DNA from: an uncultured Candidatus Micrarchaeota archaeon
GTDB taxonomy: Archaea > Micrarchaeota > Micrarchaeia > Micrarchaeales > Micrarchaeaceae
NCBI GenBank assembly: GCA_963741095.1
Contig: CAVUGN010000006.1
Coordinates: 1-62,698 of the forward strand
DNA: 62,698 nt
Direction: 5' to 3'
Below the pieces are notes generated by a model that had not been told where the DNA came from, did not search any database, and was given only the letters and a program-made list of their open reading frames with translations. The position numbers were made by a program, and so were the translations under genes. Numbering within the stretch: the first letter of the stretch is position 1; each line of letters opens with the position of its first letter. Shown one piece after another: positions 12,601 through 40,165 of the stretch.

Positions 12601-13402
12601 CAAGCTTCCAAGCTCCCTTTTATTCGTAAACCTTCTTTGTGTTAACTAATTGAATGCAGAGTTTGGTAAAAATTATTTGGCTTGATTACTCCAATTCAAT
12701 ATGGCGAATCCTTTCGTTTCAATGACGTATCTCTTTAAGAGTAATCCCTCTTTTCGTACATATCCCCCATTTATCAGTTTAATTACGATCTGGTCATTAA
12801 GATTATTTAACTCACGATTCCTTATATTTTTTAATGTTTCCATATCCGCCGTTGATAATTTTTTGCCCCCCGCATCAATAAACGCTTTCTTTTCTTCCGC
12901 TTCTTGTTTCTTTCTTTCCCTTATGTCATTTAATCTTTCCTTTTCCATTTCTTCGCGTCTCTTGGCCAGCCTTCAGGAATAGAAACTACGCCTTCTGCAA
13001 GTGTTTCCATTGCCCACCTTAAACATCGCAACTCCGCCTCTTACATTGAAAAATATCAATTTTCCTTTGATATTTTGTATAGTGATGGGACATTCGGATA
13101 TTTTATTTGGTTCAGAGTTGCACATTATTAACTGAGAAAAACAAACAAGGTTGACCACCCAAGGACGGCCTAAATGCAGGCATATTGGGTTTAAGTCCAT
13201 ATTTCCTTCCAAGTTCCGTTAGCCATAATTGTACGGGCAAGAAGGTGCGCCAACTCGTTCCAGATTCCGCCATAATTATATTGTGCTGGAAAAGCGTATA
13301 TTCGTTGCCATCAAGCCTTCTCCAAGCCCCCTTTTCTTCGTAAACCTTCTTTAGGCGTGTACTTTTATTGTTTGGGTCTTGGCTAAGGCCGGGATGACTG
13401 GT
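12601..13402 (+). repeat. Two AT-shifted variants of the cassette-boundary repeat (about 12601-12640 and 13311-13402)
   Basis: Shared CCAAGCYCCCTTTT(A/C)TTCGTAAACCTTCTTT; the second copy continues into GGCTAAGGCCGGGATGACTGG like the repeat right arm. Confidence 0.5.
12673..12948 (-). CDS. Small hypothetical protein, possible winged-helix C-terminus
   Basis: 91-aa ORF; LINGGYVRK...YVIETKG wHTH-like ending. Confidence 0.5.
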   Translation of the reverse strand: MEKERLNDIRERKKQEAEEKKAFIDAGGKKLSTADMETLKNIRNRELNNLNDQIVIKLINGGYVRKEGLLLKRYVIETKGFAILNWSNQAK

Positions 13403-13411
13403 GTTTTTTGT

Positions 13412-13597
13412 TTACGCGTATACGTTGCAGTATGATGCGGGCTTGAGCGTATGCTTGCAATTAGTGCAGACTGCTAAGATATCTTTTCCTCCGCCTATCC
13501 CTCCTCCTGGTTGTATATCTCTCTTTTCTTGTGTTATCTGTACATCGCTGTTACATTTGCAGGAACAATCAGAATGATCCACACACATTTTGCACAT
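13412..13597 (-). CDS. Small Cys-rich putative metal-binding protein
   Basis: MCKMC..CSCKC...CTNCKH; GTGGT RBS-like sequence upstream. Confidence 0.55.
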   Translation of the reverse strand: MCKMCVDHSDCSCKCNSDVQITQEKRDIQPGGGIGGGKDILAVCTNCKHTLKPASYCNVYA

Positions 13598-13665
13598 TTA
13601 ACCACAATTTTGCATATATCAATTTCATTATAAAAACCAGATTAATCTAAACCCAAAATGGTCTA

Positions 13666-14628
13666 TTATCCGCTGGCATCTATGTTACCGTTAGCATGAT
13701 GTACCTCTCTCACACCACCCGGTGGGCGTTCGGGATTTCCAGTACAATTATGCGTTTCAGGCACCCAATGCGTAGAACAAAAGTATTTTCCGCAATACCT
13801 GCATTGATGTAAGTCTGCCCAAGTCTTATATGAGCTTTTGCAGTAATAACAATAGTGTTTATTCCACTCAATTTCACATTTAGTGTTGTGTTCTTTGGGC
13901 TCTATATGCGTAGAACAAAAGTATTTTCCGCAATACCTGCACACTTTTTTATCCGCAGAACTTCCATACTTCTTTTCACATTTATAGCAATAGGTATCAT
14001 TAGTGTCTTCTTTCCATAATCCATAACATTTTTCATCATGGGTTTTAGGGTTTATATGCTCTGTACAGAAATATTTTCCACAGTATTTGCATTCCTTCTT
14101 ATCTTTAGAACTTCCATACTTCTTTTCACATTTATAGCAATAGGTATCATTAGTGTCTTCTTTCCATAATCCATAACATTTTTCATCATGGGTTTTAGGG
14201 TTTATATGCTCTGTACAGAAATATTTTCCACAGTATTTGCATTCCTTCTTATCTTTAGAACTTCCATACTTCTTTTCACATTTATAGCAATAGGTATCAT
14301 TAGTGTCTTCTTTCCATAATCCATAACATTTTTCATCATGGGTTTTAGGGTTTATATGCTCTGTACAGAAATATTTTCCACAGTATTTGCATTCCTTCTT
14401 ATCTTTAGAACTTCCATACTTCTTTTCACATTTATAGCAATAGGTATCATTAGTGTCTTCTTTCCATAATCCATAACATTTTTCATCATGGGTTTTAGGG
14501 TTTATATGCTCTGTACAGAAATATTTTCCACAGTATTTGCATTCCTCTCCAACACCAGTCTTTCTTGTGCATTTATGACAGCGGGGTTTCCCTTTTAATA
14601 TCTCTTTGATGGTATCCAAAATCCCCAT
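13666..14628 (-). CDS. Protein with six tandem AN1-type zinc fingers
   Basis: Repeated CxxC-x(9-12)-CxxC-x4-CxxH-x5-H-x(1-3)-C pattern. Confidence 0.85.
   Translation of the reverse strand: MGILDTIKEILKGKPRCHKCTRKTGVGEECKYCGKYFCTEHINPKTHDEKCYGLWKEDTNDTYCYKCEKKYGSSKDKKECKYCGKYFCTEHINPKTHDEKCYGLWKEDTNDTYCYKCEKKYGSSKDKKECKYCGKYFCTEHINPKTHDEKCYGLWKEDTNDTYCYKCEKKYGSSKDKKECKYCGKYFCTEHINPKTHDEKCYGLWKEDTNDTYCYKCEKKYGSSADKKVCRYCGKYFCSTHIEPKEHNTKCEIEWNKHYCYYCKSSYKTWADLHQCRYCGKYFCSTHWVPETHNCTGNPERPPGGVREVHHANGNIDASG
13957..14546. repeat. Perfect 150-bp tandem repeat, about 3.9 copies (50 codons each)
   Basis: Identical blocks starting at 13961, 14111, 14261 and 14411. Confidence 0.97.
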
Positions 14629-14960
14629 TTCATCCCTCTTTTCAACTTTGTATCTTTATCCCTTCTACACTAACTTAAATAAATTTATGCTTCATATTCC
14701 CTACCTGTTTTTTAAAATCCTTTTAGCACAAAACAGTCTGCCAACTCACTCACTACTTTTTCCCGCCAACACGCCCTCAAATACTATTCGGATAACCAAT
14801 CAAACACCCAAAAAATATTCGGGCAGGACCATGCGGGCGCCCCTTTCCATCGTTTTCCTTCGACGGAAGGGATGTTCGGATAACGTGCTGCTGGGGGATA
14901 GAAGCCGAATACTTCTGCCTGTTCTCCCAGTACCGAACGCCCTGCAACCAAAACGCCCGA

Positions 14961-15060
14961 GCCCAAGCCTGCCGCCATCCCCACCAAACCCTTAAACTCT
15001 TTTCTTTTCATAGCTTAGCGTGCTTCGATGCAGATCTCGGCTAAAGACCTCGGCTGGCTC
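14961..15060 (+). repeat. Reference copy of the cassette-boundary repeat: promoter plus first codons of the Cas4-like nuclease gene
   Basis: CCAAACCCTTAAACTCTTTTCTTTTCATAGCTTAGCGTGCTTCGATGCAGATCTCGGCTAAAGACCTCGGCTGGCT. Confidence 0.8.
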
Positions 15061-15726
15061 AATACAGCTGACTTCTGCCCAAGGTGCTTCTGGATAACCA
15101 GGCATGACCGCAAGCTGCCATACCAGACTCCCTTCGCAGGCATCTTCTCTTCCATCGATTCTTATACCAAAAGCGTGGTGGCCAAGCACTTCGAAAGGTT
15201 CAACAGGCTTCCGGACTGGCTTGCCGAGATCGGAGACGTGAAGAGACTGGTGAAGGTGGTCCCATCCGCGTTCAGGACGGAGAAGGACGGGACGGTGCTG
15301 ACAGGCATCCCGGACGAGCTCTTCCAGAGGCCGGACAGCAGCTACGGCATAATAGACTACAAGACCGCGAGGTACACGGGCAACCAGGACGCGCTCATGC
15401 CGGTCTACGAGGTGCAGCTCAACGGATACGCCTACATAGCAGAGGCCATCGGGGATAAGCCGGTCAACGACCTCTACCTCGCCTATTTCGAGCCTCCGAG
15501 CCACGAGCGCTTCGACGAGCTCACCGGCAAGCACACCACAAAAGAAGGATTTGAGATGCCCTTCACCCCCGTGATACACAAGGTAAGGAAGGACACGAGG
15601 CAGGTGGAGAGGCTGATGGCAAAGGCTGAAGGCATATATGAGATGAGCAAGCCTCCTGAAGGCTTGGAAGGGTGCGAGGACTGCGCCAGGATGGAGGAGT
15701 TGGCTAGGTTGATTGGGCTAGGCTAG
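15028..15726 (+). CDS. PD-(D/E)xK nuclease of the Cas4/AddB-like superfamily
   Basis: CPRCFW, GIPD, IIDYKT, QLNGYAY, C-terminal CEDC (four Cys ligands). Confidence 0.88.
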   Translation: MQISAKDLGWLNTADFCPRCFWITRHDRKLPYQTPFAGIFSSIDSYTKSVVAKHFERFNRLPDWLAEIGDVKRLVKVVPSAFRTEKDGTVLTGIPDELFQRPDSSYGIIDYKTARYTGNQDALMPVYEVQLNGYAYIAEAIGDKPVNDLYLAYFEPPSHERFDELTGKHTTKEGFEMPFTPVIHKVRKDTRQVERLMAKAEGIYEMSKPPEGLEGCEDCARMEELARLIGLG

Positions 15727-16184: not shown

Positions 16185-16200
16185 AGACTAGGAGATTGAT

Positions 16201-16323
16201 AAGCCTCTAGCCTCGCCGCGCTCCTTTTTAACCCTCTAGCCCGTCGCCCCGCAACCCTTAAGCTCTTTTCTCTGGATGGCTTGCGTGCTTCCGTGAGGGG
16301 CTAAGGGGGCTTGGCTTGACAAG
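16201..16323 (+). repeat. Cassette-boundary repeat copy
   Basis: CTCTAGCC...CCCCGCAACCCTTAAGCTCTTTTCTCTGGATGGCTTGCGTGCTTCC...GGCTTGA. Confidence 0.8.
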
Positions 16324-16330
16324 TGGGTTG

Positions 16331-16800: not shown

Positions 16801-16860
16801 CGTAATCGCCAGTATAATAACCGCTGTACAGTTATTTAAGCTTTGGTGTGTGGCGATCGG

Positions 16861-16933
16861 CCCTCTGCCTCTAGCCCACCCCGCAACCCTCAACCTCTTT
16901 TATCCGGATGGCTTGGCGCGTCGCTTCTGCTAG
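16861..16933 (+). repeat. Cassette-boundary repeat copy
   Basis: CTCTAGCCCACCCCGCAACCCTCAACCTCTTTTATCCGGATGGCTTGGCGCG. Confidence 0.8.
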
Positions 16934-17096: not shown

Positions 17097-17160
17097 GAAG
17101 GTAAGTCGCATTCCATCCTTAAAATAACTTGCCCATCGGCCACGTCCCGTCTTTCCATCT

Positions 17161-17255
17161 TCAGCCCTCCCCTTTTCCGCCCCCCAAACCATTTACCCGG
17201 ACAGCTTGGCGCGCTTCAATGCTAAACTAAGGCTGGGATGGCTGGGCTCGAAGCC
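17161..17255 (+). repeat. Cassette-boundary repeat copy
   Basis: CCGGACAGCTTGGCGCGCTTCAATG...AAGGCTGGGATGGCTGGGCT. Confidence 0.7.
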
Positions 17256-18042: not shown

Positions 18043-18091
18043 AGAGGATGATGAAGCATTACCTGTTTTCGAGCCTTTTCTATCCATCCCC

Positions 18092-18120
18092 AGCCTGCGC
18101 CATCGGCTTTCTGCCTTGGC
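18092..18120 (+). repeat. 29-bp exact direct repeat, copy 1 (AGCCTGCGCCATCGGCTTTCTGCCTTGGC)
   Basis: Identical to 20524-20552. Confidence 0.92.
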
Positions 18121-18167
18121 TTGAATGTTTGTTTGCTTTGAGATGTAGTTTAGAGGGTACTTATCAG

Positions 18168-18734
18168 TCACTCGCCGATCCTTCTCAGAGCATCTAGCCT
18201 TTTCGCAGCCGCTTGTGGGTTCTCTTTCACGGTGGCGTTCCTTGCGAGTACATCGCTTTCGCGGTCTGCCCACAGCCTCTGCGCTTCCTTTGCCGCGGCC
18301 TCGGGGCCGAAACTCTTTTCGAACATTTCCAAAGTGAGCTCGATCGCGCTATCGATTATCCTGCTCAATGGGACATCATTGTGGTTCGCCTTGTGTTCCA
18401 GATCGAGAAGCGCCTCGTTCGCCTGCCTGAGGTCAAATCCCTCCGGTACGTTTTTTGTGTTGTCGTACAGCACTATGGGGCTATGGCCCATTCCTACGTA
18501 CAGTGAAACGCTTCTTACCGCGCTTGTTTCGCTGAGGAACAGCTCGTTGGCATAGTCTCCTTTGCCCTTCACGGCCAGCCTATCGAACGGAGTTACACTC
18601 TTAAGTGTGCCTACAATGCGGTCTATGCTTCCGAAAGACACCGACTCCACCAAAACAGTCCTGCCAATGTAATTCGGCAGTTGGTTCATCTGCTCTACCC
18701 TTTGCTGAACGTCAGAGTTTTTTTCTATTGTCAT
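18168..18734 (-). CDS. Orphan protein, tandem paralogue A (start MTIEKNSD at 18734)
   Basis: Shares N-terminus and the motifs KSVTPF, VLYDNTKN.P.GFDL and EMFEKSFGP with the next gene. Confidence 0.75.
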   Translation of the reverse strand: MTIEKNSDVQQRVEQMNQLPNYIGRTVLVESVSFGSIDRIVGTLKSVTPFDRLAVKGKGDYANELFLSETSAVRSVSLYVGMGHSPIVLYDNTKNVPEGFDLRQANEALLDLEHKANHNDVPLSRIIDSAIELTLEMFEKSFGPEAAAKEAQRLWADRESDVLARNATVKENPQAAAKRLDALRRIGE

Positions 18735-18750
18735 ATGATCACGATTCGCA

Positions 18751-19365
18751 TTAATCTGGATGCTTTTCAGTAACTCGCTCGAGCTTTCTAATCGCATCAC
18801 TGTGCATTTGTGCATTCGTAAGCCTTCTAATACCTTCGAGCCTTTGCACAGTTATGTCTTCACTTGTTCGATCCGCGTCTTTGTGGTCTATCTTCAGCCT
18901 GAGCGCTTCATTCGCCGCAATATACGGGCCGAAACTCTTTTCGAACATTTCCACAGTAAGCTTGTCTAGGCTTTCAATCATCTTACTCAGTGGGACATCA
19001 TAGCGATCCATATCTGGAAGCTTATCGGTCGCGGTCACAAGGTCAAATCCCTTCGGTATGTTTTTCGTGTTGTCGTATAGTACAGTAGGGTTGTCTCCAT
19101 GGAGGTTTTTGTCCACCAGTAATATACTCCTTATCGCAGTGGATCCACCAAGGAATTGTATTTCCTCATATCCTTCCGGTTTGCCATCGATGACCAACCT
19201 TACGCTTAGTTCATGGAATGGAGTTACGCTCTTGATTATGCCTTTGTGCATGGTTGTTCTTCCGAAATCCGACCACTCCATTAAAACGGTCTTGCCTATG
19301 TAATTCGGCAGGTTGTTCATCTGCTCTACTCTTTGCTGAACGTCAGAGTTTTTTTCTATTGTCAT
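18751..19365 (-). CDS. Orphan protein, tandem paralogue B
   Basis: See paralogue A; GTGAT RBS upstream. Confidence 0.75.
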   Translation of the reverse strand: MTIEKNSDVQQRVEQMNNLPNYIGKTVLMEWSDFGRTTMHKGIIKSVTPFHELSVRLVIDGKPEGYEEIQFLGGSTAIRSILLVDKNLHGDNPTVLYDNTKNIPKGFDLVTATDKLPDMDRYDVPLSKMIESLDKLTVEMFEKSFGPYIAANEALRLKIDHKDADRTSEDITVQRLEGIRRLTNAQMHSDAIRKLERVTEKHPD

Positions 19366-19406
19366 GTAATCACGTTATTGTATTACGTTTAAGCCTTCCT
19401 GGGGAC

Positions 19407-19844
19407 TTATTTCCTCAGTATGCCCTTTATCGCTTCCATTTCCTGATGGGTGATAAGCAATGCGTTGGCGTCACGGATGTATTCGAGCACGCTCGTGCCA
19501 TACCCGTCCATGATCTTGTCGATGGTCTTTTCTGTTGATTTTTCTTGCGAGGCCGCCAGACTTGAGACTACCAGTTTGAGCGCGATCTCGTAATCCCTGA
19601 TAAAAACAGGGAGATGGAGCGCAGTCATCTTCACGCCCATGTACCTGATAGGTGTGTTCGCAAGAAATTCACGCCCCTCGCGCGTGGCCACCATTTGCAC
19701 TGCGTTGCGCCTGTCCTCTATGAGCGCGAGCACATTAGCCTTGTTTACAATTCTGTCGGTAGGCTGGATTTGCCCCCACGTTTCGTATCCTCTGATTGTT
19801 ACTGTGGCATTCGCGCTTGGTGCAGCTTTTTCTTGGTAAGTCAT
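19407..19844 (-). CDS. Orphan protein
   Basis: 145-aa ORF, GTGAT RBS, extended TATA motif at about 19879-19891. Confidence 0.65.
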   Translation of the reverse strand: MTYQEKAAPSANATVTIRGYETWGQIQPTDRIVNKANVLALIEDRRNAVQMVATREGREFLANTPIRYMGVKMTALHLPVFIRDYEIALKLVVSSLAASQEKSTEKTIDKIMDGYGTSVLEYIRDANALLITHQEMEAIKGILRK

Positions 19845-20008
19845 TCGATCACGTTATAGTATTATTATCGCAGTTTAGGAGATACTTAAACCTTGTTTTG
19901 ACCTTAGACGGTTGTCGTTTCAAGCTTATACATTGTTCCCGCTACGTCTCGCGTCTAATCCCTGAAAAGGCTTAAATATCTGGAAAGCCGCAATTATAGC
20001 GTGGTAAT

Positions 20009-20452
20009 ATGGCTGAAAAACAAGTTGAAGGCATGAAGAACTGCAACAGCATGGTTCTGGAGACTGAGCCGAGAGCGATTTCCGTCATGAAGTTGCCGAT
20101 ACCGTTGAAAGTCGAGTTCGCAGACAAGGATGGAGTCTGCTCGACGAAGGAGGGATTTGTCAATTACCTGAAAGGGGACGCCATAATGACCGGCACGAAG
20201 GGCGAGAGGTGGCCGATTGCCAAGGAGAAATTCGAAAAGACTTATGAGGCAGTCGATGCCGAAAAGGGCCTGTATTCGAAGAAGAGCCTGCCAGTACTGG
20301 CGCTCAAGATTGACGAGCCTTTCACAGTCAATGTGTCATGGAGCAAGGATCCGCTGGTCGGAAAGCCCGGAGACTGGCTACTGCAGTACGGAAAGGGGGA
20401 TTTTGGCATAGTCGATGCTGAGATCTTCAAGGAGACGTACAAGGCTCTGTAA
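20009..20452 (+). CDS. PGDYG-like protein
   Basis: Duplicated motifs GDAIMTGTKGERWPI..EKFEKTY and PGDWLLQYGKGDFGIVD.EIFKETY. Confidence 0.7.
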   Translation: MAEKQVEGMKNCNSMVLETEPRAISVMKLPIPLKVEFADKDGVCSTKEGFVNYLKGDAIMTGTKGERWPIAKEKFEKTYEAVDAEKGLYSKKSLPVLALKIDEPFTVNVSWSKDPLVGKPGDWLLQYGKGDFGIVDAEIFKETYKAL

Positions 20453-20520
20453 AGGCATAGCAGAGGTTTCAATGAAGTTTTGATGCCAGCGTGGAGCATC
20501 CACAAGGCTGATTTTTACGT

Positions 20521-20613
20521 CTTAGCCTGCGCCATCGGCTTTCTGCCTTGGCGTGCTTCCATGCGGATCTCGGCCAAGGCTGGAAGGGCTGAAGACTGGG
20601 CGTGGGGCTTGAT
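20521..20613 (+). repeat. Cassette-boundary repeat copy, containing copy 2 of the 29-bp direct repeat
   Basis: CTTGGCGTGCTTCCATGCGGATCTCGGCCAAGGCTGG...GGGCTTGA. Confidence 0.85.
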
Positions 20614-20615
20614 TG

Positions 20616-21576: not shown

Positions 21577-21660
21577 TTAGGTAGATGAAAATATTTAAAG
21601 CTATCTGCCTAACCGCCATGCTAATTAGGTAGATGGAAGATGTTGAGATAATCTACCTAA
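21577..21660. promoter_or_regulatory. Two tandem palindromic operators TTAGGTAGAT-N16-ATCT(A/G)CCTAA overlapping the Fic promoter
   Basis: Half-sites at 21577-21586, 21603-21612, 21625-21634 and 21651-21660; TATA-like TTTAAATA lies inside the first spacer. Confidence 0.75.
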
Positions 21661-21760
21661 CTGCAAAAAGCTATAGGAACTAACAAAACGGATAGGGCTG
21701 TAGCTTAGGGGTAGCTAATCTCAACCCCATCTGTGGATAAATATCCAGGTTAATCAATCG

Positions 21761-22280: not shown

Positions 22281-22335
22281 GCTCATCCTAGCCTCGCCCG
22301 CGCGCACGCCGCTCCGCCCTGCTTGGGGCGTGCTG
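22281..22335 (+). repeat. Short cassette-boundary repeat copy
   Basis: CATCCTAGCCTCGCCCGCGC...GCTTGGGGCGTGCT. Confidence 0.55.
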
Positions 22336-23883: not shown

Positions 23884-23885
23884 TC

Positions 23886-30774: not shown

Positions 30775-31225
30775 GCAACCGTCTTATGCTCATGGGATGG
30801 AGCAGGTAGTGCTCGTCGAACGACGCTCCGCCCTTGGCCACGATGCTCGAGGTGAAATTGGATGTTTTCCTGAGCATGCTCGAAGGCGATGCCGGCGCCT
30901 TGCTCCCGGTGAGCGATTCTATGATAAGGTCGGTCATCTCGCTGACGTGCTTCTCCGCGGCCTTGTTCTCTTCCGTGGCTAGCGCCCGCATGTAGACGCG
31001 CACTTCTATGTCCACGAAATTGTCGAAGCAGCTCTGCGCGGATATCCTGCTCTCGAAACCAGGTGTCTCGTAGCCCCGGATGCCCTTCGCTATCGCCTCG
31101 AAGATCGAAGGCATTGAACGGTTATTGACGCTTATCGTCTCGTTGTAGTAGCTCCTCACGCCCTCTACGCCGCTGTCCACGCCGCTTCTCGCCGGCGCGA
31201 TGTCAGTTGTTTTTCCGATTGCCAT
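30764..31225 (-). CDS. Orphan protein, paralogue of the next gene
   Basis: Shared RSG...EG.R.Y.NETISV.NR....IF.AI..G. Confidence 0.72.
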   Translation of the reverse strand: MAIGKTTDIAPARSGVDSGVEGVRSYYNETISVNNRSMPSIFEAIAKGIRGYETPGFESRISAQSCFDNFVDIEVRVYMRALATEENKAAEKHVSEMTDLIIESLTGSKAPASPSSMLRKTSNFTSSIVAKGGASFDEHYLLHPMSIRRLHVG

Positions 31226-31247
31226 TGTCTCACTTGATGAGCATGAT

Positions 31248-31649
31248 TCACATGATCCGGTCCATGTAGGTCGAACATCCGCCGTGCCTCAATCCGACAG
31301 GCGTTGTCGGCTTTTCGGCTGATTCGGAAGCAGTCTTGCCGCCGAGCTGCTCCATGATCCGGTCCGCTATGACGCGCACCTGCGCCAGATCCGCATCGTT
31401 GAACCCCTTGCGTATGGTGTAGATGCGCAGGTCGATCGATGTCTTTCCGTTGGCTTCAGTCCTGACCGTGATCCTCCTGTCGAGCTTCTGGTCCTGGCCC
31501 TTCACCCCTTCGCTTATCGCATCGAATATCTTGGATAGCGGGCGGTTGCTGACCGATATCGTCTCGTTCGAATAGTACCTGATGCCCTCGTAATCGCAGT
31601 GCATGCCGCTCCTTGTCGGCGCCTCGCTTGCGGTTTTTCCGGTCGTCAT
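31248..31649 (-). CDS. Orphan protein (likely start MTTGKTASE)
   Basis: Paralogue of the previous gene; motif at 31677-31690. Confidence 0.72.
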   Translation of the reverse strand: MTTGKTASEAPTRSGMHCDYEGIRYYSNETISVSNRPLSKIFDAISEGVKGQDQKLDRRITVRTEANGKTSIDLRIYTIRKGFNDADLAQVRVIADRIMEQLGGKTASESAEKPTTPVGLRHGGCSTYMDRIM

Positions 31650-31755
31650 ATTCTCATCCATCAGGCTTGTCCAGAGGAAATATTTATGCCTTTTCTTCGG
31701 TTTTTCGGTAGAGCCGGGATTGCAGTTAAAGGCTGGCTCCGGGGTATGGCGCCGG

Positions 31756-32247
31756 TCAGAAGTCGTTGTAGGGCTTGCCCCTGTATATGACCCTGTTCTC
31801 GAAATTGTCGTTGAAGAACTTCCTGCTCTCGTTTATCGACTTTGCGATGTCCATGAGCGCCTTCTCATCCGAGAGGCTGATCAGGTCGGTCTTCCACATT
31901 ATGCACCAGTCGCTCTCGTGCGTGTATTTGACCAGCTTTGGCGGTTCCAAACGGATTATCTTGCTCTGCAGGAATTCGTCGAGCACCATGTTGATGTCCT
32001 CGAAGGTCCACCTGCTGGGCGCGTATATCTCTTCGTACAGGATGATGCCCTTGTTCTTCTTGTCGATGTACCTGTCTATGCCCATGAGGGCTATCTCATC
32101 GAGGACTTTGTGATTCGCCGTAGAATGGCGGTCCAATCTCAACAGTTCGCCGATCGCCGTTATGAGAGGTACGCTGTGCTTCACTGCAACTTCTTGCTGC
32201 TTCGCATTAGAACCGTTTGCCGCAGTTTCAGATTTGCTGGCAGACAT
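31756..32247 (-). CDS. Orphan protein
   Basis: Motif at 32274-32287, GTGAT RBS. Confidence 0.7.
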   Translation of the reverse strand: MSASKSETAANGSNAKQQEVAVKHSVPLITAIGELLRLDRHSTANHKVLDEIALMGIDRYIDKKNKGIILYEEIYAPSRWTFEDINMVLDEFLQSKIIRLEPPKLVKYTHESDWCIMWKTDLISLSDEKALMDIAKSINESRKFFNDNFENRVIYRGKPYNDF

Positions 32248-32327
32248 CTCATCACGATTAGCATGAATTCCATGAGATACTTATGCCTTTCCCATGGTCG
32301 GGGATTGCCGTTTTGAACTGGTCGGAA

Positions 32328-33083
32328 TCACGTGAATTGCGTCGGGTCCACCCAGTCCCTGGTCCCGCTCGCCCAATCTATAAGCCTGTGCAGCGATTTC
32401 GGCAGGAGATACCTGAGCCTCTCCAGCCCGTCTGAGACCCCCTTCTCGGTCTTCGCGTTTGATATCCTCATCTTCGTTATCGCGACTATGGTCCTGGTTA
32501 TGAAATCCCTGTCGAACGATTCTGCGAACTTCTCGCCGAAGTCAGAGAAATCCTTGCGCAGGAACGCGTATGCGACAACGAAGTCGCTGTGCACCTTGTC
32601 GCGCCTGAATGCGCCGTCCTTGTCCATGATGTCGGCCTTTATCTCCTTGAAGTTCCCGCAGTGCCGCATTATGATGAGCTTGCCCTCGTCCAGCCCGGGC
32701 CAGTACATCCGCCTGACCGACGCTATCTCGCCGAGATAGAGGGGCTCCCTTATGCCGGTTGTGTGTCCCACCCCTTCGAAGCCGTTCACTGCGGTGTACG
32801 CCGTAGCGTCCATTATCGCAAGCGTCTGGCTTATCGCGTTGTCCTTCTGCCTCCTGTTCAGCGTCGGGTAAACACTGCCGATCGCGTTGTAGAGGCCCCA
32901 CGTGATGCCCTCCGGCGCGCCTCCCGCGAGGTTCTTTATGAAGTCGTCGCCCTTGAAGTACTGGTTCTCCATGAACCTGAAAGTGGCCGCCAGCTGGCCT
33001 ATGCCTATGTCCGGCTCGCATCTCACCAGCGCACCGAACTTCTCTATCGCATTAGGGGCCAAAGAGGTCTGTCTCATTGCCAT
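32328..33083 (-). CDS. Hypothetical protein
   Basis: 251-aa ORF with host-like codon usage; motif at 33111-33124. Confidence 0.72.
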   Translation of the reverse strand: MAMRQTSLAPNAIEKFGALVRCEPDIGIGQLAATFRFMENQYFKGDDFIKNLAGGAPEGITWGLYNAIGSVYPTLNRRQKDNAISQTLAIMDATAYTAVNGFEGVGHTTGIREPLYLGEIASVRRMYWPGLDEGKLIIMRHCGNFKEIKADIMDKDGAFRRDKVHSDFVVAYAFLRKDFSDFGEKFAESFDRDFITRTIVAITKMRISNAKTEKGVSDGLERLRYLLPKSLHRLIDWASGTRDWVDPTQFT

Positions 33084-33139
33084 CCCATCACGCTACAGCA
33101 TCAACCCGGTGAGATATATACGCCTTTCGGAAGAGCCGA

Positions 33140-33514
33140 CTAAGGGTAGGTCGCACGTCCATCGATGGCGGTCCTCATGAACTGCCTTATCGGGCTTGCC
33201 CCCTTTACGCCTATCGAATCGAAGTACTTTTCCATTTGTTCGTTGTGCAGCACGCGCGCAATGTCCACCGCATTGTCGCCGCGCACATCTCTAGTCTTTG
33301 GGTCTGCGCCTTTGTTCAGCTGGGCCTTCGCCTCTTCGAGATTGTTCTTTTCCACGGCACGGATGAAAGAGAAATCCAGATATGTCCTCTGGTTTTCCGT
33401 GAGCGTCGCGCGCGTCGCGGCCCCGAGAGACAGGTCAACTTTCGTCTCAACCGTGCTTATGGTCATGGTTGTCGCATTGGTTGCCTGGATTCCGGTTTGA
33501 TTGTGTGTTGCCAT
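33140..33514 (-). CDS. Ankyrin-repeat protein with a Thr-rich N-terminus
   Basis: AVEKNNLEEAKAQLNKGADPKTRDVRGDNAVDIA. Confidence 0.75.
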   Translation of the reverse strand: MATHNQTGIQATNATTMTISTVETKVDLSLGAATRATLTENQRTYLDFSFIRAVEKNNLEEAKAQLNKGADPKTRDVRGDNAVDIARVLHNEQMEKYFDSIGVKGASPIRQFMRTAIDGRATYP

Positions 33515-33681
33515 TCTATCACCTGATAAAATACGCGGTGCAGGAGATATTTACGTATTGCTTCGGCATTAGACGTTTGACGTTATGAACTTATTGTGCG
33601 ATCGGTGCGCAGATTCGATGATTAACGGAGACAACCGGCAGGCATAAATATTTCCAAAATCGGAACTTATGCAGTGAGAAC

Positions 33682-34077
33682 ATGCAGCAAACTGCAGTGC
33701 ATTACAACCTCCGCGAAGCCGATGTCGCATCGATAAACAAGATGATAGTGCAGTCTTTGGCGCTGGCAAATTCCCATGGGGGATCGTTCACGATGAACGG
33801 CGGTGCTTTCACTCTTGATAAGGTGGAGATACGCTACAATGGGAAGAACAGGTTGACAGTAAACGAGATTGCAGAACCAAAGCGCCCCATACACTTTATC
33901 CTCAGGCCGAGCACTGCCCCGCACGCAGAATGCGTCTTTGACGCACTGATTGGCGAGGACGGCGTCAGCCTGCTCTGCCTCAAGCGCAGCGGATTGTCCG
34001 CAGAAGGCGGTTGGGAGAGCGTTATCGAAAGGGAGTTCAAGAAGTTTCTCACCACACCTCGGGGCATGCACATCTGA
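33682..34077 (+). CDS. Orphan protein
   Basis: GGCATAAATATTTCC at 33641-33655, about 30 bp upstream. Confidence 0.65.
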   Translation: MQQTAVHYNLREADVASINKMIVQSLALANSHGGSFTMNGGAFTLDKVEIRYNGKNRLTVNEIAEPKRPIHFILRPSTAPHAECVFDALIGEDGVSLLCLKRSGLSAEGGWESVIEREFKKFLTTPRGMHI

Positions 34078-34086
34078 TTGCGCGGA

Positions 34087-34779
34087 TCAAACATTTTGAT
34101 CGACTTTTCTGCTTTTCCTTACGTCGTTCAGAAAATAGGCGACGCCCTTCCTTATGCCGATTTCGCCCAGCGCCTTTGTCACTGCGCCTATCGTCCTGCC
34201 GCTCTCGAGCGCATCGTCGACCACCAGGATGGGCTCGCTCCGGTGCTTCCACAGGTTCTGCGCGTCCCATTCCGATATGTGCACCTCTCCAGGTCTGTAA
34301 TAGCGGGGTTCCGAAGACCGCTTTCTTGCGTAGCCGACGAACGCGACGTCGATCAGCATGTCCCTGTTCTTCAGGCAATCGCACACGAACGCGCCCGGTA
34401 TGATGCCGCCGGTCATGATGGGGACCACAAGCCTCCTCTCCGTGCCGATCTTCGAGAGCGTGAGATGCACATCCTCGATCTTGAATTCTAGGCTCTTGGA
34501 CACGCCGGTCGATTCCAACACGATCATCGGGTCGTTCCTGCCGTAGATCTCCAGTATGTTCTTTATGACGCTGTGGTGCTCCCGCCTTTCCGCCACGCCC
34601 TTTTTCGGATCGAAGAGGCCGTACCAGGTCTGCTTCACCAACTCGGGGTACATGTCCGGCGTCATGCTCTCGAACAGTCTGGTGTCCTCTTTCCTGACGA
34701 GCCTTGAGAGCTCTGCCTTTACTTGGAGGTTTACCTGCGCCAGTTTTTCATTCAGAGCAAGAGAATTGACGGTTGCCAA
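34087..34779 (-). CDS. Type I phosphoribosyltransferase-fold protein
   Basis: VVPIMTGG and PRPP-binding ILVVDDALESGRTI. Confidence 0.8.
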   Translation of the reverse strand: MATVNSLALNEKLAQVNLQVKAELSRLVRKEDTRLFESMTPDMYPELVKQTWYGLFDPKKGVAERREHHSVIKNILEIYGRNDPMIVLESTGVSKSLEFKIEDVHLTLSKIGTERRLVVPIMTGGIIPGAFVCDCLKNRDMLIDVAFVGYARKRSSEPRYYRPGEVHISEWDAQNLWKHRSEPILVVDDALESGRTIGAVTKALGEIGIRKGVAYFLNDVRKSRKVDQNV

Positions 34780-34888
34780 AGTAACACAGATACCTTCAGC
34801 TTTTCCCTAATACTTATACTTTTCTGGAGAGGGATCAGCGCTTACTCTGCCACTTTGGCATCATTCTAAATGCTGTTTCGGGTCCGGA

Positions 34889-35647
34889 CTATTTGGGCAT
34901 GCTGCTTATGTTTTTCAGGTCGTCGAGCGCCGCAGTCTCGTTCCTGCTCGCGATGGCCTGCTTGAGGCCAGAGTAGGCCTGCGCTATCCCCGTGGGCAGG
35001 TTCGACGCGGGTATGTGCGTGAACAGCCCTTCTATCGCGTTTATCTCAGTCGTGGCATTGGCCCAGTTCTGCTGGCGCACGTTGTAGTAGATCTGCAGCG
35101 ATATGTCGTAGACGTAAGCGTAGGCGATGCTGATCGACTGGTTCGCGGATATCTGCGGCGTGGCTACGGTCATGCCCATGCCCGCCGTGGAATTTGCCAT
35201 GGTGTTCAGAAGGCTATAAACTCCGGTCTGATTCTTGTTCTGGATGTCCAGCTTTAGGGCCGCGTAGCCCTGCGTTAGCTCAGAAGGCAGCTGCGAGGAG
35301 GATACGTTGGCGAGAATACCGCCTATTGTGTTCATCTCACCCGTGGCTGCGGTCCAGTTCTCGTTGAACACGTTCGTGTAGATCTCCATTGAGAGAAGGT
35401 AAGCGTATTCCTCTGTTGCATTGACTGATTGGTTCGCCCCAACTTGCAGCACTGTGGTTGGCACAGTGGTGGTTATTGAAGTTGACTGAGCTGTGTTTAC
35501 CTGCCCGCCTGATGGCACAGTTGTCGAGCTTGATGTTGCTGCCGATGGATGGTACAGAAAGACGGCGCCCAGTATGATGATCACCAATACCGCTATTCCC
35601 GCAATAGCGATGTTCTTGTTTCCCTTTGAAGCTTGCGAATCGGCCAT
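34889..35647 (-). CDS. N-terminally anchored surface protein with a Ser/Thr linker and two internal helical repeats
   Basis: TM helix, T/S-rich stalk, repeats IY.NV...NW..AT.E.N.I, many N-X-S/T sites. Confidence 0.75.
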   Translation of the reverse strand: MADSQASKGNKNIAIAGIAVLVIIILGAVFLYHPSAATSSSTTVPSGGQVNTAQSTSITTTVPTTVLQVGANQSVNATEEYAYLLSMEIYTNVFNENWTAATGEMNTIGGILANVSSSQLPSELTQGYAALKLDIQNKNQTGVYSLLNTMANSTAGMGMTVATPQISANQSISIAYAYVYDISLQIYYNVRQQNWANATTEINAIEGLFTHIPASNLPTGIAQAYSGLKQAIASRNETAALDDLKNISSMPK

Positions 35648-35835
35648 TCAATCCCAAAGATGTTATTTTTGGATAGGTTATTATGTCTTGCCAGAGGGCA
35701 GCGGATTCCAAGAATGCGGAGTTTATTCGGTTGCCTTCAACACAATCCCCGATGCGCCCAAAACCACACACCGAAACTCGTATATATCTGATACCGGTTC
35801 AATGATGGTAAAGTTCAGGTATGCGGCGAAGTGAA

Positions 35836-36369
35836 ATGGAAACCCACGGCAACAGGGACGGGAAGATGACCGCTCAGAGGGCGGACGCGATAAAAGCGTT
35901 TGTAAGGCAGAGGGAAAGCTCATCGGACGATGCGGTCAGCAAGAGTGTTGTTGGTTTGAAGCGCATCGTCAGCGATGATAAGGCGAAGGTGCTGGGCATG
36001 GAGCTGATAGAGGAGATACGGAAGGATCGGATCGACCTAAAAAGGGTCGAGGAACTGATACTCGGCGGCGCGGACACGAACCTAAAGCACGATGGGGATA
36101 TGACTCCGCTGATGTGGGCTTCATACCTCGGCAGGGATGAGGCCGTCGAGGCATTGACGTCCGGCTGCGCGGACCTGGATTTTAGCAACAAATGGGGCCA
36201 CACCGCGCTGATGTACGCGTCAATTCACGGCGCGGACAAGTCCGTCAAAATACTGCTGGATCATGGCGCCAATCCGAATTGCAAGAACTATGACGGAAAG
36301 AGGGCTATTGATTACGCAAAGAGCGATGTCACAAGGAAATTGCTTGCGGATGCAGTGAGGGGTAAGTGA
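35836..36369 (+). CDS. Ankyrin-repeat protein with the conserved leader
   Basis: TPLMWAS, GHTALMYAS, LLDHGANPN. Confidence 0.9.
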   Translation: METHGNRDGKMTAQRADAIKAFVRQRESSSDDAVSKSVVGLKRIVSDDKAKVLGMELIEEIRKDRIDLKRVEELILGGADTNLKHDGDMTPLMWASYLGRDEAVEALTSGCADLDFSNKWGHTALMYASIHGADKSVKILLDHGANPNCKNYDGKRAIDYAKSDVTRKLLADAVRGK

Positions 36370-36370
36370 G

Positions 36371-36814
36371 ATGGAACGCAGCGCGAACAATGGCGGCAGG
36401 ATGACCGTGCAGCGTGCAGACGCGATAAAGGCGTTCGTAAGGCAGTCGGAGGATATGGCCAACGGGATGACTGCACGGGCAAAAGACGATTCTATGAGGA
36501 TGGAAATGAGCGCGGCAGAGAGAAAATGGTTCGGAATGGCGCTCATCGAGGAAACGATCAAGGGCGATGGGAGCGTCGATAAGATCAGAGAGATTTTGGA
36601 CAAGGGCGCAGACGTCAATGCTGCGGACAGCCTTGGCAGAACGGCGCTTATGTGGGCTGCGCGTCGGAGCCATGCAAATGTCATCGAGACACTGGTGAAC
36701 AGCGGCGCCAGAATAGATATTAGGACCAACGACGGCAGTACGGTTTTTGACTACATAGTCGACGAGGACATAGAGAAGCTGCTCGAGGACCTGACGGAGG
36801 GTAGATCGAGATGA
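36371..36814 (+). CDS. Ankyrin-repeat protein with the conserved leader
   Basis: GADVNAADSLGRTALMWAA. Confidence 0.9.
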   Translation: MERSANNGGRMTVQRADAIKAFVRQSEDMANGMTARAKDDSMRMEMSAAERKWFGMALIEETIKGDGSVDKIREILDKGADVNAADSLGRTALMWAARRSHANVIETLVNSGARIDIRTNDGSTVFDYIVDEDIEKLLEDLTEGRSR

Positions 36815-37450
36815 AAACCGATGCAAACAAGGACGGAAAAATGACCACAGACCGAGTGGAAGCGATAAGGGCCTTTGTCCAGCGGTCCGAAGGCGCGATC
36901 GAAAACGGAATCAGAGGAATGATGGCCATGAAGCCTGCTGCCATCAGCAAGGAAGAGGCGAACAAGTTTGGAATAGAGCTTGCCGTAGAATCACACAAGG
37001 GCAATCCGGACATGGACAGGGTGAACAGGCTGATAAGCCAGGGGGCGGACTTGAACGCGACTGATCCATTCGGGCAGACGGCGCTGATGAACCGCCACGA
37101 TAAGAGACAACAGCGATCTGGTCGCGATGCTGATACGCAGCGGCGCCGATGTGAACGCGGAGGCGCACGAACAGGGCAGGATGACCGCGCTGCTTTTCGC
37201 CTCACAATTGGGCAACTGCGCGATCATAAAGATACTGCTGGACGGCGGGGCGCGCATGGCCGCGGAACGCAATATGGACCGGACGCCGCTGATGCTGGCC
37301 GCAGCGAACGGTAAGGGTGATGCCGTCAGGCTGCTGCTGGACCGCGGCGCAGACCCGGCACAGAAGGACCATTACGGCCTTACCGCGGAGCAGATCGCAT
37401 ACGCTGAAAGCATAAAGAACATGCTCAGGAATGCCGTGGGGGCGAAGTGA
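36811..37450 (+). CDS. Ankyrin-repeat protein with the conserved leader, 1-bp frameshift near 37090
   Basis: Removing one base after GQTALM restores ..ATIRDNSDLVAMLIRSGADVN into ORF 37127..37450. Confidence 0.8.
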
Positions 37451-37451
37451 G

Positions 37452-37928
37452 GTGGAGACGAGCGCGAACCGGGACGGAAGGATGACCACGGACAGGGTGG
37501 AGGCGATAAGGACATTCATGGCCGGCTTCGGCCCGCTGCTCGTGCTCATAGCGTCTTTTGCAACCAAGAAAGCGTACTGGAAGCTTGAGGGGATAGATTA
37601 CCTTTGCGGGTTCTTCTCTGTGCTTGCCTTGGTACTTTGGGCGGTGACTAAGGATCCCTCGATCGCAATCATTTTCGCCATAGCGACTGACGCGCTCGCT
37701 TCGATTCCGACAATCGCCAAGAGTTGGAGGCATCCGGAAACCGAATCTAGCTACTCATACGCCCCCAGCATAATAAGCGCCCTCACCGCGTTCACTGTGA
37801 TCACCGCTTGGACCTTCCCGGAGTACGCGTTCCCAGCGTATCTGGTCGTTATTAACATCATCTTGACGCTACCATGGTTTTGGAGGAAGGACACGTGGCT
37901 TGCGAAGAAACGGTCTCATAAATTATAA
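37452..37928 (+). CDS. Chimeric ORF: ankyrin-type leader fused to an N-terminally truncated multi-pass membrane protein
   Basis: VETSANRDGRMTTDRVEAIRTF followed directly by MAGFGPLL...PT..KSW.HPETE hydrophobic domain. Confidence 0.7.
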   Translation: METSANRDGRMTTDRVEAIRTFMAGFGPLLVLIASFATKKAYWKLEGIDYLCGFFSVLALVLWAVTKDPSIAIIFAIATDALASIPTIAKSWRHPETESSYSYAPSIISALTAFTVITAWTFPEYAFPAYLVVINIILTLPWFWRKDTWLAKKRSHKL

Positions 37929-37934: not shown

Positions 37935-37992
37935 TCTGGCCTCACTATAGCCGCGTCCTCGCCTTTCCGGCCTGGCTTGGGCGCGGCAGCTT
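37935..37992 (+). repeat. Short cassette-boundary repeat variant
   Basis: TAGCCGCGTCCTCGCCTTTCCGGCCTGGCTTGGGCGCG. Confidence 0.55.
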
Positions 37993-38002
37993 ATTCCCTT
38001 AT

Positions 38003-38079
38003 ATGGCTACAATCCATATGTTTGTAGATAATGTAGCCATTATGTCCACAAGTTATATATATCTTGATGTTGTAGCCAT
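38003..38079. promoter_or_regulatory. Operator ATGGCTACA-N20-TGTAGCCAT plus a third half-site, and a TATA box
   Basis: Half-sites at 38003-38011, 38032-38040 and 38071-38079; TTATATA near 38052. Confidence 0.7.
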
Positions 38080-38991: not shown

Positions 38992-39000
38992 GTATCTTGG

Positions 39001-39070
39001 ATCGCCCTCGCCGTCTACCAAACCTTTAAACGCTTATCTTCGGTTAGCTTAGTGTGGTTGGATGGCAGGG
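39001..39070 (+). repeat. Cassette-boundary repeat variant providing the promoter and start of the next gene
   Basis: CCAAACCTTTAAACGCTTATCTTCGGTTAGCTTAGTGTGG..GGATGGC. Confidence 0.6.
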
Positions 39071-39409: not shown

Positions 39410-39440
39410 ATGCGGTTGTAGGGCCAAGACTAATCTTTCC

Positions 39441-39495
39441 GTCTTAGCCCTCGCCTTTCCTGCTTGGCTTGGAGGTTGGGTTCATTTGGCTTAAT
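39441..39495 (+). repeat. Short cassette-boundary repeat variant
   Basis: TTAGCCCTCGCCTTTCCTGCTTGGCTTGG; related copy at 40105-40132. Confidence 0.55.
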
Positions 39496-39546
39496 GTTAT
39501 AGAAAGGTTTTTATATCTATTAATACGTTATTAATATGGTGTTAAT

Positions 39547-39792
39547 GTGGTAAAGGCCATTATAGACATAAGCGAGGATGCGAATACCATCCTGAACATA
39601 ATCAAGGCGGAGTACGGTCTGAGAGACAAGTCCCAGGCAATAGACAGGATGGCGGAGGATTACAAGGAGATGGTTTTTGAGCCCAAAGTCAAGGCTTCGT
39701 ATCTAAAGAAATTGAAAAGGATATCCAAAGAAAAGACCGTGCGCATAGGCACGATGGAGGACTTCGACAAGATGTACCACATCAAAGGGTAG
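39547..39792 (+). CDS. DUF2683-like antitoxin
   Basis: MVKAIIDISE.AN.ILNIIKA.YGLRDKSQAI. Confidence 0.8.
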   Translation: MVKAIIDISEDANTILNIIKAEYGLRDKSQAIDRMAEDYKEMVFEPKVKASYLKKLKRISKEKTVRIGTMEDFDKMYHIKG

Positions 39793-39801
39793 GCTGGTGC
39801 G

Positions 39802-40074
39802 ATGGCCGTCTACACTTATGACGTTAAGGATCATGTAAAGAGGCTATTCCAAAAAATGGAAAAGAGAAGCCCTATGCAACTGTTAATCATCAGGAAAAAG
39901 TTGATTCAGATACTGGATGATCCCTATAGATTCAAGCCGCTAAGTGGCCAGATGAAAGGGATAAGGGCAGTTCACATAGACAAAAGCTTTGTTCTGACCT
40001 ATTCGATAGACGAAACCAGAAAGGTTGTAACCATTGAGGATTACGACCATCACGATAATATCTACGAGAGTTAG
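39802..40074 (+). CDS. RelE/YafQ-family mRNA interferase toxin
   Basis: FKPLSGQMKG.R.VHI..SFVLTY...DHHDNIY. Confidence 0.85.
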   Translation: MAVYTYDVKDHVKRLFQKMEKRSPMQLLIIRKKLIQILDDPYRFKPLSGQMKGIRAVHIDKSFVLTYSIDETRKVVTIEDYDHHDNIYES

Positions 40075-40165
40075 ATTTTAGCTTCCTCTTTCGCTTTTTG
40101 GTCCACGCCCTCGTTTTTCCGGCTTGGCTTAATGCGCCGTCCGAAGAATTTCGCAACTCTTTGGA

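Follow-up and report, generated by a model that had tools for sequence, protein, structure and literature searches.

Repeats derived from a nuclease gene start separate small gene cassettes in an island of a micrarchaeal genome

How archaea of the DPANN type acquire accessory and defence genes is an open question, as their genomes are tiny and hold few recognisable mobile elements. One locus that bears on it lies in a 62,698-nt stretch of DNA from an uncultured Candidatus Micrarchaeota archaeon (GenBank assembly GCA_963741095.1, contig CAVUGN010000006.1), which was analysed at its full length and is referred to here as the window. This window is the whole of contig C6 of a genome of 1,078,454 bases in 11 contigs, estimated to be 94% complete; the genomes of relatives in the same family measure 0.6-1.1 Mb. 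Among Rfam models, the archaeal one fits its small-subunit rRNA best (1314 bits). An initial annotation, made from the letters of the window, had listed 18 positions of a degenerate, co-oriented repeat lying between small genes, and had taken the locus for an integron-like array and a candidate for an undescribed gene-capture system. What are these repeats, from what do they derive, and how did unrelated genes come to lie between them? The locus is a flexible gene-cassette island in a small DPANN-type archaeal genome, with units that are self-contained genes or gene pairs. It represents one concrete route of gene acquisition: unrelated units of one or two genes, many of them toxin-antitoxin or Fic genes, lie between copies of a sequence that comprises the promoter and 5' end of a single gene.

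The repeat and the gene start from which it derives

The repeat is degenerate and modular, measures 40-150 nt and is present in 17 copies, besides a marginal eighteenth. Every copy is on the + strand, and the family is confined to 12.6-27.0 kb and 37.9-40.1 kb of the contig. A repeat search of the window returned overlapping families at these places (D2 with eight copies, D4 with six, D9 with five and D12 with four). Long and short types share the core GCTTGGC, and the copy at 20521, whose left part is of the short type and whose right part is of the long type, links the two.

A profile built from nine seed copies (nhmmer) gave 11 matches on the array contig, all on the + strand, including two copies that were not seeds (39010-39064, E 3.7e-4; 13322-13401, E 0.065). 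With no better match than E 2.4 on the other ten contigs, counted as zero matches, the repeat is not spread evenly among housekeeping genes, a distribution that would have spoken against a cassette array. A covariance model holding sequence and no structure (R1) was built from 11 copies and recovers these with E values between 2.4e-23 and 2.4e-8, every one on the + strand of the array contig; these matches are its own seeds, hence no independent detection. The hidden Markov model (HMM) of the short type likewise matches the five copies that served as its seeds (18071, 20521, 37935, 39441 and 40100; E 8.9e-8 to 1.5e-5), the next match elsewhere being at E 1.2. More diverged copies were confirmed by alignment: that at 12601 aligns to that at 13311 with a score of 56 (shuffle maximum 27), and that at 26890 to that at 16201 with 49 (shuffle maximum 24). 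The copy at 22281 is represented by a 22-nt left module and is marginal, its score being 27 against a shuffle maximum of 26. Seventeen of the 18 positions first listed are therefore upheld and one is marginal; the consensus string proposed with them agrees with the alignment, and the description of a locus-restricted, co-oriented array with integron-like cargo between its copies is supported. Scans of the window with Rfam models and for tRNAs found nothing. The copies, the gene from which they derive and two cassettes are as follows.

12600-12685, + strand: copy 1, diverged and AT-rich; ends TCAAGCT ... GGCTTGA; aligns to copy 2
13308-13448, + strand: copy 2; ends TCAAGCC ... GGCTTGA; R1 E 2.4e-8
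14957-15062, + strand: copy 3, the 'native' copy; holds a promoter-like core, the start codon ATG at 15028 and ~12 initial codons of the nuclease gene; R1 E 1.3e-16
15028-15726, + strand: Cas4-like PD-(D/E)XK nuclease gene; Pfam PF12705 E 1.1e-8, weak match to TIGR00372 (cas4)
16198-16325, + strand: copy 4, full length; two CTAGCC left modules; ends GGCTTGGCTTGA; R1 E 3.0e-17
16857-16924, + strand: copy 5, lacking the right half; R1 E 9.7e-11
17146-17252, + strand: copy 6; R1 E 2.4e-16
18069-18124, + strand: copy 7; long-type left part, 29-nt core, short right end TTGA; short-type HMM E 8.9e-8
18125-20518, strand not assigned: four-gene cassette between hybrid copies 7 and 8; parts of it in another context in the same-genus genome G001
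20519-20612, + strand: copy 8; short-type left part, 29-nt core, long-type right part; R1 E 5.0e-9, short-type HMM E 4.5e-7
21765-21881, + strand: copy 9; R1 E 3.2e-15
22282-22303, + strand: copy 10, marginal, left module only; score 27 against a shuffle maximum of 26
23884-24002, + strand: copy 11; R1 E 2.4e-23
24527-24672, + strand: copy 12, full length, with boxes; R1 E 8.0e-19
25417-25506, + strand: copy 13; TATA-like core and GTG start at 25496 for the Mo-oxidoreductase gene; R1 E 6.0e-14
26892-26975, + strand: copy 14, left modules and core only; aligns to copy 4
37943-37981, + strand: copy 15, short type; short-type HMM E 4.5e-6
38995-39068, + strand: copy 16; TATA-like core and ATG at 39062 for the DUF5518 gene; R1 E 1.2e-9
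39439-39494, + strand: copy 17, short type, ends GGCTTAA; short-type HMM E 1.5e-5; homology to the cassette on metagenome contig L031 starts a few nt beyond
39495-40076, + strand: DUF2683 / YafQ-ParE-like toxin-antitoxin cassette (Pfam); homologous cassette on metagenome contig L031
40077-40133, + strand: copy 18, short type, ends GGCTTAA; short-type HMM E 3.1e-6

A full copy begins with CTAGCC units, one to three in number, behind each of which a GC-rich tract gives way to a T-rich one. The core CCCCGCAACCCTTAAAC-TCTTTTCT comes next, then CCGGATGGCTTGGCGTGCTTC (variant CATAGCTTAGC) and ATGCGGATCTCGGCCAAGGCTGGGATGGCT, and the right end is made of one to three GGCTNRR boxes, the last of which is GGCTTGA. 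Left boxes (YYNAGCY) are restricted to the left part and right boxes (RGCTNRR) to the right part, and the outer ends are sharp, consisting of inverted 7-nt boxes (TYNAGCC ... GGCTNRA). GGCTTGA occurs nine times in the window, against 10.9 expected, and eight of the nine are repeat ends: seven close the right side of + strand copies within 12.7-24.7 kb, and the eighth is the left end of copy 2 in inverted form.

The source of the repeat was found within copy 3, where a PD-(D/E)XK nuclease gene encoding a 232-aa product starts at the ATG column of the alignment. Homologs of this protein number 578 at E <= 1e-5, and 12 of the 13 that were fetched possess an ISAKDLG-type motif within their first 14 residues; most of these start M(Q/R)ISAKDLG, followed by FCPRCFW. 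Module D of the repeat reads ATG-CGG-ATC-TCG-GCC-AAG, or M-R-I-S-A-K, and in copy 9 the similarity to the nuclease gene extends to the codons GGC-TGG-CTC (G-W-L). Homology between repeat and gene ends at GGCTCAA (15056-15062), the counterpart of the shared right end GGCT(T/C)(G/A)A. As module D matches the conserved N-terminus of the homologs and the right end corresponds to GGCTCAA, each copy is a decayed duplication of the nuclease gene that runs from its upstream region and promoter through the start codon to codon ~12. The intact gene is third from the left, with two copies to its left and 15 to its right. Its distribution is patchy: it was present in three of 40 relatives (once with two in-frame TGA codons) and not found in the same-genus genome G001.

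The repeat had also been described as containing a promoter, and a promoter-like core was recovered in it with a position weight matrix. This 22-nt matrix, with a BRE/TATA-like consensus (BRE, the TFB recognition element), was derived from 190 upstream regions of the other contigs; the centre of its motif lies mostly 25-40 nt before the start codon, and 8.0 bits mark the 99.9th percentile of the window. In copies 3 (at 14983), 13 and 16 the core scored 8.8, 9.1 and 7.8 bits, respectively; copy 12 reached 6.8, and no other copy exceeded 3.9. The first three, and no others, have a + strand gene that begins at the start-codon column of the repeat, 33.5-34.5 nt after the TATA centre: the PD-(D/E)XK gene (15028), the Mo-oxidoreductase gene (GTG at 25496) and the DUF5518 gene (39062). 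The start at 25496 is that from which a paralog at 51709-51785 aligns (family D14). The 5' part of the gene (25488-25770) is 76-81% identical to 51709-51991 in the conserved right flank, where the paralog starts with ATG, whereas the cassette copy starts with a GTG taken from the repeat. Seven other units have strong promoters of their own (10.9-20.5 bits). The repeat carries a usable but weak predicted promoter that seems to be kept only where a gene depends on it.

The intervals between copies, on the open reading frames (ORFs) selected by the authors, hold one or two ORFs in 15 of 17 cases, four in one and ~17 in that of 27.0-37.9 kb; consecutive sites are less than 4 kb apart, the spacing by which clusters of two or more integron sites are defined, in 16 of the 17. 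The ORFs of such clusters generally share an orientation; by the same ORF calls seven units of the array read on the + strand, eight on the - strand and one is mixed, whereas all repeats are on the + strand. Pfam searches bore out the cargo that had been listed: the toxins comprise two of ParE type and one YafQ/ParE-like, and the Fic genes encode one Fic/Doc protein of 117 aa and two Fic proteins of ~300 aa. Other cargo consists of AbiEii, GNAT, cupin, PGDYG, DUF5518, a molybdopterin oxidoreductase, a zinc-finger repeat protein and the PD-(D/E)XK nuclease.

Further features of the interval genes were noted. A 320-aa ORF at 13666-14628 (- strand), in a stretch of low GC (38-40%), scores as repeated FYVE/AN1-type zinc fingers, the repeats at 13768-14643 forming six tandem 150-nt units. 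The block at 27089-35647 (- strand) consists of ~14 genes, for which Pfam gave one phosphoribosyltransferase-like and one weak ankyrin match; a near-identical promoter-like motif (GAGATATTTATGC on the + strand) precedes each gene and several are similar at the N-terminus. Homologs of these genes were identified in G001 and on contig L031, there interleaved with left modules of the repeat. Four tandem paralogs with a conserved 87-nt 5' part follow at 35821-37928 (+ strand), the first two scoring as ankyrin-repeat genes and the other two having no Pfam match.

Cassettes in relatives and metagenomes

In the genome of the same genus (G001; 84% complete, 140 contigs) the right flank at 41.5-58 kb is kept at 67-87% identity (mostly 75-87%), and the array is matched in three stretches only. 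On contig C13 of that genome, the Mo-oxidoreductase gene lies between two diverged copies of the repeat (alignment scores 30-45, shuffle maxima 23-27) that differ from those of the window in module make-up; the downstream one is of the copy-8 type, where the window has a left-half-only copy. On its contig C62, homologs of 18.7-20.0 kb (86-90% identity) follow directly, without repeats, on homologs of the 34-kb genes.

Scans with 22-letter patterns pointed to 21 metagenome loci and six loci in species genomes, of which two (L031 and L038) contain real copies, the rest of the 27 matching the 22-nt pattern only. Contig L038 (1156 nt) has a full copy (68 bits) at its end, beside a gene with no DNA match in the array genome. 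Contig L031 (3234 nt) carries a DUF2683 and YafQ/RelE pair between two copies and is 84% identical over 220 nt to 39.5-40.1 kb of the window (BLAST). This homology starts a few bases past the GGCTTG/GGCTTA end box and extends as far as the stop codon, at which the left boxes of the next copy set in; the upstream neighbour and the type of the downstream repeat are different. Logan contigs of four sequencing runs, which represent mixed communities and can show other contexts but not excision, provided two more cases: a near-identical stretch of 21796-21876 in runs X5 and X6 has different flanks on both sides, with divergence right after GGGCT, and a 34-nt piece of copy 8 occurs in X5 with other flanks. 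Gene order is thus not fixed, G001 and the metagenome contigs differing from the window, as had been expected of a locus whose cassettes are shuffled.

Comparison with four other genera gave DNA matches within 20-60 kb for two units only, at 72% and 68% for the Fic gene of 38.0-39.0 kb and at 75% for the DUF2683 antitoxin; no DNA match to the 40-60 kb flank was found in the four genera tested. Since these are the only units that match, their similarity suggests that the Fic and DUF2683 units move between genera.

The repeat itself was found sparsely outside the window. R1 gave one weak match in 60 relatives (G052, E 0.004) and none in 150 genomes of the order under strict filters that also miss the diverged copies of G001. 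No comparable repeats were identified in the regions around the Fic or antitoxin homologs of G002, and scans of viral contigs gave one chance match (the contig of L028) and none for a second pattern.

G004, a genome from another genus of the family, contains a second, unrelated arrangement of cassettes with direct repeats (contig C3, 4900-7530; L050). Two Fic genes (5213-6118, + strand; 6369-7319, - strand) lie there beside a tRNA-like 3' end that was not called by ARAGORN, and direct repeats of 149 nt (93% identity), each finishing with the same tRNA-like 3'-end motif, enclose the second. Both Fic genes of the window have palindromic operator-like sequences upstream (21577-21664 and 38000-38070), near strong TATA-like boxes, and a similar palindrome also precedes a Fic gene of G004.

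At the left edge of the array, a 213-aa ORF with a tubulin/FtsZ GTPase domain overlaps the next ORF, which has 139 aa and no Pfam match (10735-11776, + strand), and the pair may be a frameshifted or split FtsZ/TubZ-like gene. The left flank (1178-9279) encodes a HerA/FtsK-like ATPase, a Csa3/ArsR-type regulator, a UvrD helicase-PD-(D/E)XK fusion and an AAA ATPase. As 1-12 kb has almost no match to the same-genus genome and the first 1 kb has a GC content of 30%, the entire 1-41 kb may be a single flexible or integrated region. On another contig of the genome (G000:C1:98605-100598; L052), a 16S rRNA match spans 1994 nt for a model of 1478 positions, and the gene seems to contain an insertion of ~500 nt.

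Assembly of the array

The core motifs of attC, the recombination site of integrons, are R'' (RYYYAAC) and R' (GTTRRRY). Both strands of the 62.7-kb window were searched for such pairs 40-160 nt apart with at least 6/7 complementary positions, and none was found. The 12 copies that were folded box to box as single-stranded DNA on both strands gave z scores of -2.63 to +2.07 with a median near 0; z <= -2 was reached by one of the 12 on each strand (20519-20614), owing to a perfect 8-bp inverted repeat (GCCTTGGC/GCCAAGGC). Across the 11 aligned copies this stem (CTTGGC/GCCAAG) had no compensatory pairs, with 68.2% of positions paired against 68.8% in shuffled columns. No match to PF00589, PF00239, PF01797 or PF01867 occurs in the window, and searches of nine to ten unannotated ORFs in or near the array against PHROGs and NCBIfam revealed no recombinase. 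The genome contains no serine recombinase, Y1 transposase or Cas1, and TnpB reached 15.8 bits only.

Its sole tyrosine recombinase is encoded on contig C9, directly after a tRNA-Arg gene, and falls far below the NCBIfam cut-offs for XerA (48.6 bits, cut-off 220) and the integron integrase IntI (TIGR02249; 25.3-25.7 bits, cut-off 265). This gene (L005, G000:C9 1066-2085) lies immediately downstream of tRNA-Arg(TCT), its longest ORF reads through the tRNA, and it is probably the integrase of an integrated element. As regards Xer/dif-type modules, this recombinase does not reach the Xer cut-off, and dif-like sites were not searched for. The absences of attC boxes and of an integrase stated in the initial annotation thus hold, the latter for the scanned ORFs of the window, with no integron integrase in the genome either. 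The imperfect hairpin that it had proposed from the arms of the repeat is not supported, the folding being no better than that of shuffles. With no attC pairs, no folding signal and no IntI, the array is not an integron.

The sequences of the repeats contain possible footprints of recombination. Copies 7 and 8, which flank 18125-20518, share an identical core of 29 nt (97% over 32 nt in family D9). Copy 7 has a long-type left part that passes at once into a TTGA end, while copy 8 starts abruptly at TCTT and continues with a long-type right half; they look like the products that would be expected had a circle with a short-type site recombined with a long-type site of the array. Copy 4 appears mosaic: its core is nearest to that of copy 13 (0.90), the module after it to that of copy 11 (0.91). 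In this comparison of nearest neighbours module by module, copies 9 and 12 are sisters in all modules.

The explanation given most weight, though put forward tentatively, is that recombination within the repeats accounts for the gain, loss and movement of cassettes. A mechanism may be inferred in which two direct repeats recombine and release a circle of one cassette and one repeat; this circle, or transferred DNA bearing a repeat, would re-enter at any repeat through a single Campbell-type crossover. Such re-entry would preserve a common orientation of the repeats irrespective of how the cargo is oriented, and a cassette gene beginning at the start codon of a repeat would use that repeat as its promoter. 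The enzyme would most likely be the general homologous-recombination machinery, which is favoured because the genome lacks a dedicated enzyme and the points of crossover seem to differ. The strongest argument that the polarity of the repeats is set by the building of the array, rather than by gene expression, is their uniform direction, which is independent of the cargo.

Several observations weigh against recombination of this kind. The copies are only ~50-90% alike over short modules and would be poor substrates for homologous recombination today, and just one pair, copies 7 and 8, looks recent. R1 gave no match on G001 at E <= 1, its two copies on C13 having been recognised by eye and alignment. 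No excision or circle junction was seen in the contigs of the four runs, in which rare forms are dropped, and run X1, with the closest contigs, showed no joints. The joints in X5 and X6 have short sides (22-74 nt), and one of 134 nt is a diverged stretch of equal length; they can be other repeat copies from other strains. Two joints that go back along the window, 16272>15030 (X5) and 23915>21796 (X6), were considered as circle junctions and rejected on account of short sides (46 and 74 nt) and extra letters. No weight is given to stretches without cover in X5, X6 and X7 (e.g. 25.6-34.2 kb). A site-specific enzyme would account more readily for the sharply conserved inverted end boxes, and as the genome is 94% complete a recombinase might be encoded in what is missing or be supplied in trans. 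The contig itself comes from a metagenome bin, and as Logan contigs break at most repeats the cassette order is only partly verified.

Of the alternatives, the most serious, though an unlikely one, treats the repeat as an attachment site over the promoter and 5' end of the nuclease gene, at which cassettes without an integrase accreted, as in tycheposons, through an integrase acting in trans. Candidate sources of that integrase are the 6% of the genome that is missing, a plasmid or virus, and the host of this symbiont. Partial copies of a gene end are the hallmark of att-site duplication, the inverted 7-nt boxes make both outer ends sharp and conserved, the core GCTTGGC is common to both types, and in G004 Fic genes lie by a tRNA-like 3' end, the second within 149-nt direct repeats. 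The tycheposon preprint (bioRxiv 10.1101/2020.12.28.424599) describes successive integrations at one site and scattered partial tRNAs. Against this, the only integrase of the genome is at tRNA-Arg on another contig, the intact target gene occupies the third place from the left in the array, not a terminal one, the positions of crossover appear to vary between copies, the repeats resemble none of the 28 tRNAs of the genome (chance matches of 9-10 nt, best E 0.2), and in three genomes of other genera that carry the nuclease gene its 5' region is not repeated nearby. Slightly further down in likelihood stands a dedicated archaeal system of cassette capture, an analogue of integrons without attC or IntI, whose sites would descend from the start of the Cas4-like nuclease gene and have inverted TYNAGCC/GGCTNRA ends, a GCTTGGC core and a promoter and start codon for the genes captured. 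Cutting and joining would then fall to an enzyme that has escaped recognition, which might be the Cas4-like nuclease or a recombinase of a host or virus acting in trans; if so, the G004 Fic cassettes with their 149-nt direct repeats would be a sister form in the same family. A gene-capture system not yet described was the proposal of the initial annotation, and it is not shown: no candidate recombinase was found in window or genome, and a pseudo-copy of a gene's 5' end fits ordinary recombination or att-site accretion equally well.

It is rather doubtful that the repeat is nothing but a regulatory spacer, that is, a locally duplicated module of terminator and promoter that serves the expression or insulation of adjacent genes, with ordinary gain and loss, independent of the repeat, accounting for the differences in cassettes between genomes. 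Three genes use its promoter-like core with a start codon at the usual distance, its left half has T-rich tracts, and a similar GCAAC..TAAA motif is found in the local promoters of the 27-35 kb genes; however, the copies point one way while eight of 16 units are on the other strand, and in copies without a following + strand gene the TATA-like core scores at most 6.8 bits, mostly at most 3.9. A spacer of this kind also sits badly with the seven units that have strong promoters of their own, with the useless pseudo-coding stretch inside the repeats and with the breaks of inter-genome homology at their ends. A non-autonomous transposon resembling a miniature inverted-repeat transposable element, inserted many times between genes, is improbable: the inverted ends TCAAGCC/GGCTTGA, the length of 55-150 nt and the intergenic positions suit it, but all copies share one orientation and one locus, inspection of the flanks gave no consistent target-site duplication, no transposase families were found in the genome, and the sequence comes from the 5' end of a gene. 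Least probable of all is a divergent integron or cluster of attC sites lacking an integron integrase (CALIN), its attC drifted to YYAAG/CTTRR in place of YYYAAC/GTTRRR and its IntI supplied in trans. The end boxes are one central base pair away from canonical cores, and layout and cargo (toxin-antitoxin, acetyltransferase) match those of archaeal integrons, which mostly have no IntI nearby according to Ghaly et al. 2022 (PMC9668308); this is set against the results for attC pairs, folding on either strand, covariation and IntI given above, ORFs that run both ways, often behind their own promoters, and a repeat that is a pseudo-copy of a gene start. Recombination inside the repeats, most likely by general homologous recombination, remains the preferred explanation.

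Comparison with known systems

If the repeats are points of exchange, an integron-like layout would have arisen independently, without attC or IntI and possibly without any dedicated enzyme. Surveys of integrons based on attC and IntI would then miss such arrays. CALINs lack IntI by definition, so the absence of IntI alone excludes no CALIN. Integrons and CALINs, archaeal ones included, resemble the array in having tandem units of one or two genes, co-oriented repeats of 55-150 nt with inverted end boxes and a cargo rich in toxin-antitoxin pairs and acetyltransferases; CALINs also have no adjacent integrase, and most archaeal integrons are described without an IntI nearby (Ghaly et al. 2022, PMC9668308). 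The array differs from them in lacking RYYYAAC/GTTRRRY cores, a hairpin signal and IntI, in having ORFs on both strands, many with promoters of their own, and in the nature of its repeat, a pseudo-copy of the promoter and 5' end of a gene that itself contains a promoter and start codon.

In CdiA/Rhs polymorphic toxin loci, co-oriented repeats of gene fragments provide the homology by which cassettes are swapped through homologous recombination. In their orphan arrays the repeat is coding sequence read in frame, and each cassette supplies another end for one and the same protein; the cargo genes of the present array are unrelated and mostly independent of the repeat. The pdif modules of Acinetobacter plasmids are small, often carry toxin-antitoxin genes and are bounded by short recombination sites in varied contexts. 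Their sites are 28-bp Xer sites in alternating orientation, while the repeats of the array are long and co-oriented. A search of the literature on archaeal integrons, DPANN islands and mobile elements of Micrarchaeota, which was not exhaustive, found no such array described.

Tandem cis-mobilisable elements accrete at attachment sites and leave partial copies of the target between insertions. In the tycheposon islands of Prochlorococcus, as presented in the preprint (bioRxiv 10.1101/2020.12.28.424599), successive integrations at one site are accompanied by scattered partial tRNAs, and the array resembles these islands in that its direct repeats are partial copies of a target gene between successive insertions in a flexible island. 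The target of the array is the 5' end of a protein gene instead of a tRNA, its units measure 0.3-2.4 kb and contain no integrase, none was found for it elsewhere, and the intact gene does not lie at an end of the array. The array is accordingly rated here as belonging to the cassette and accretion-island kind, to which it adds repeats made of a gene start as a new feature.

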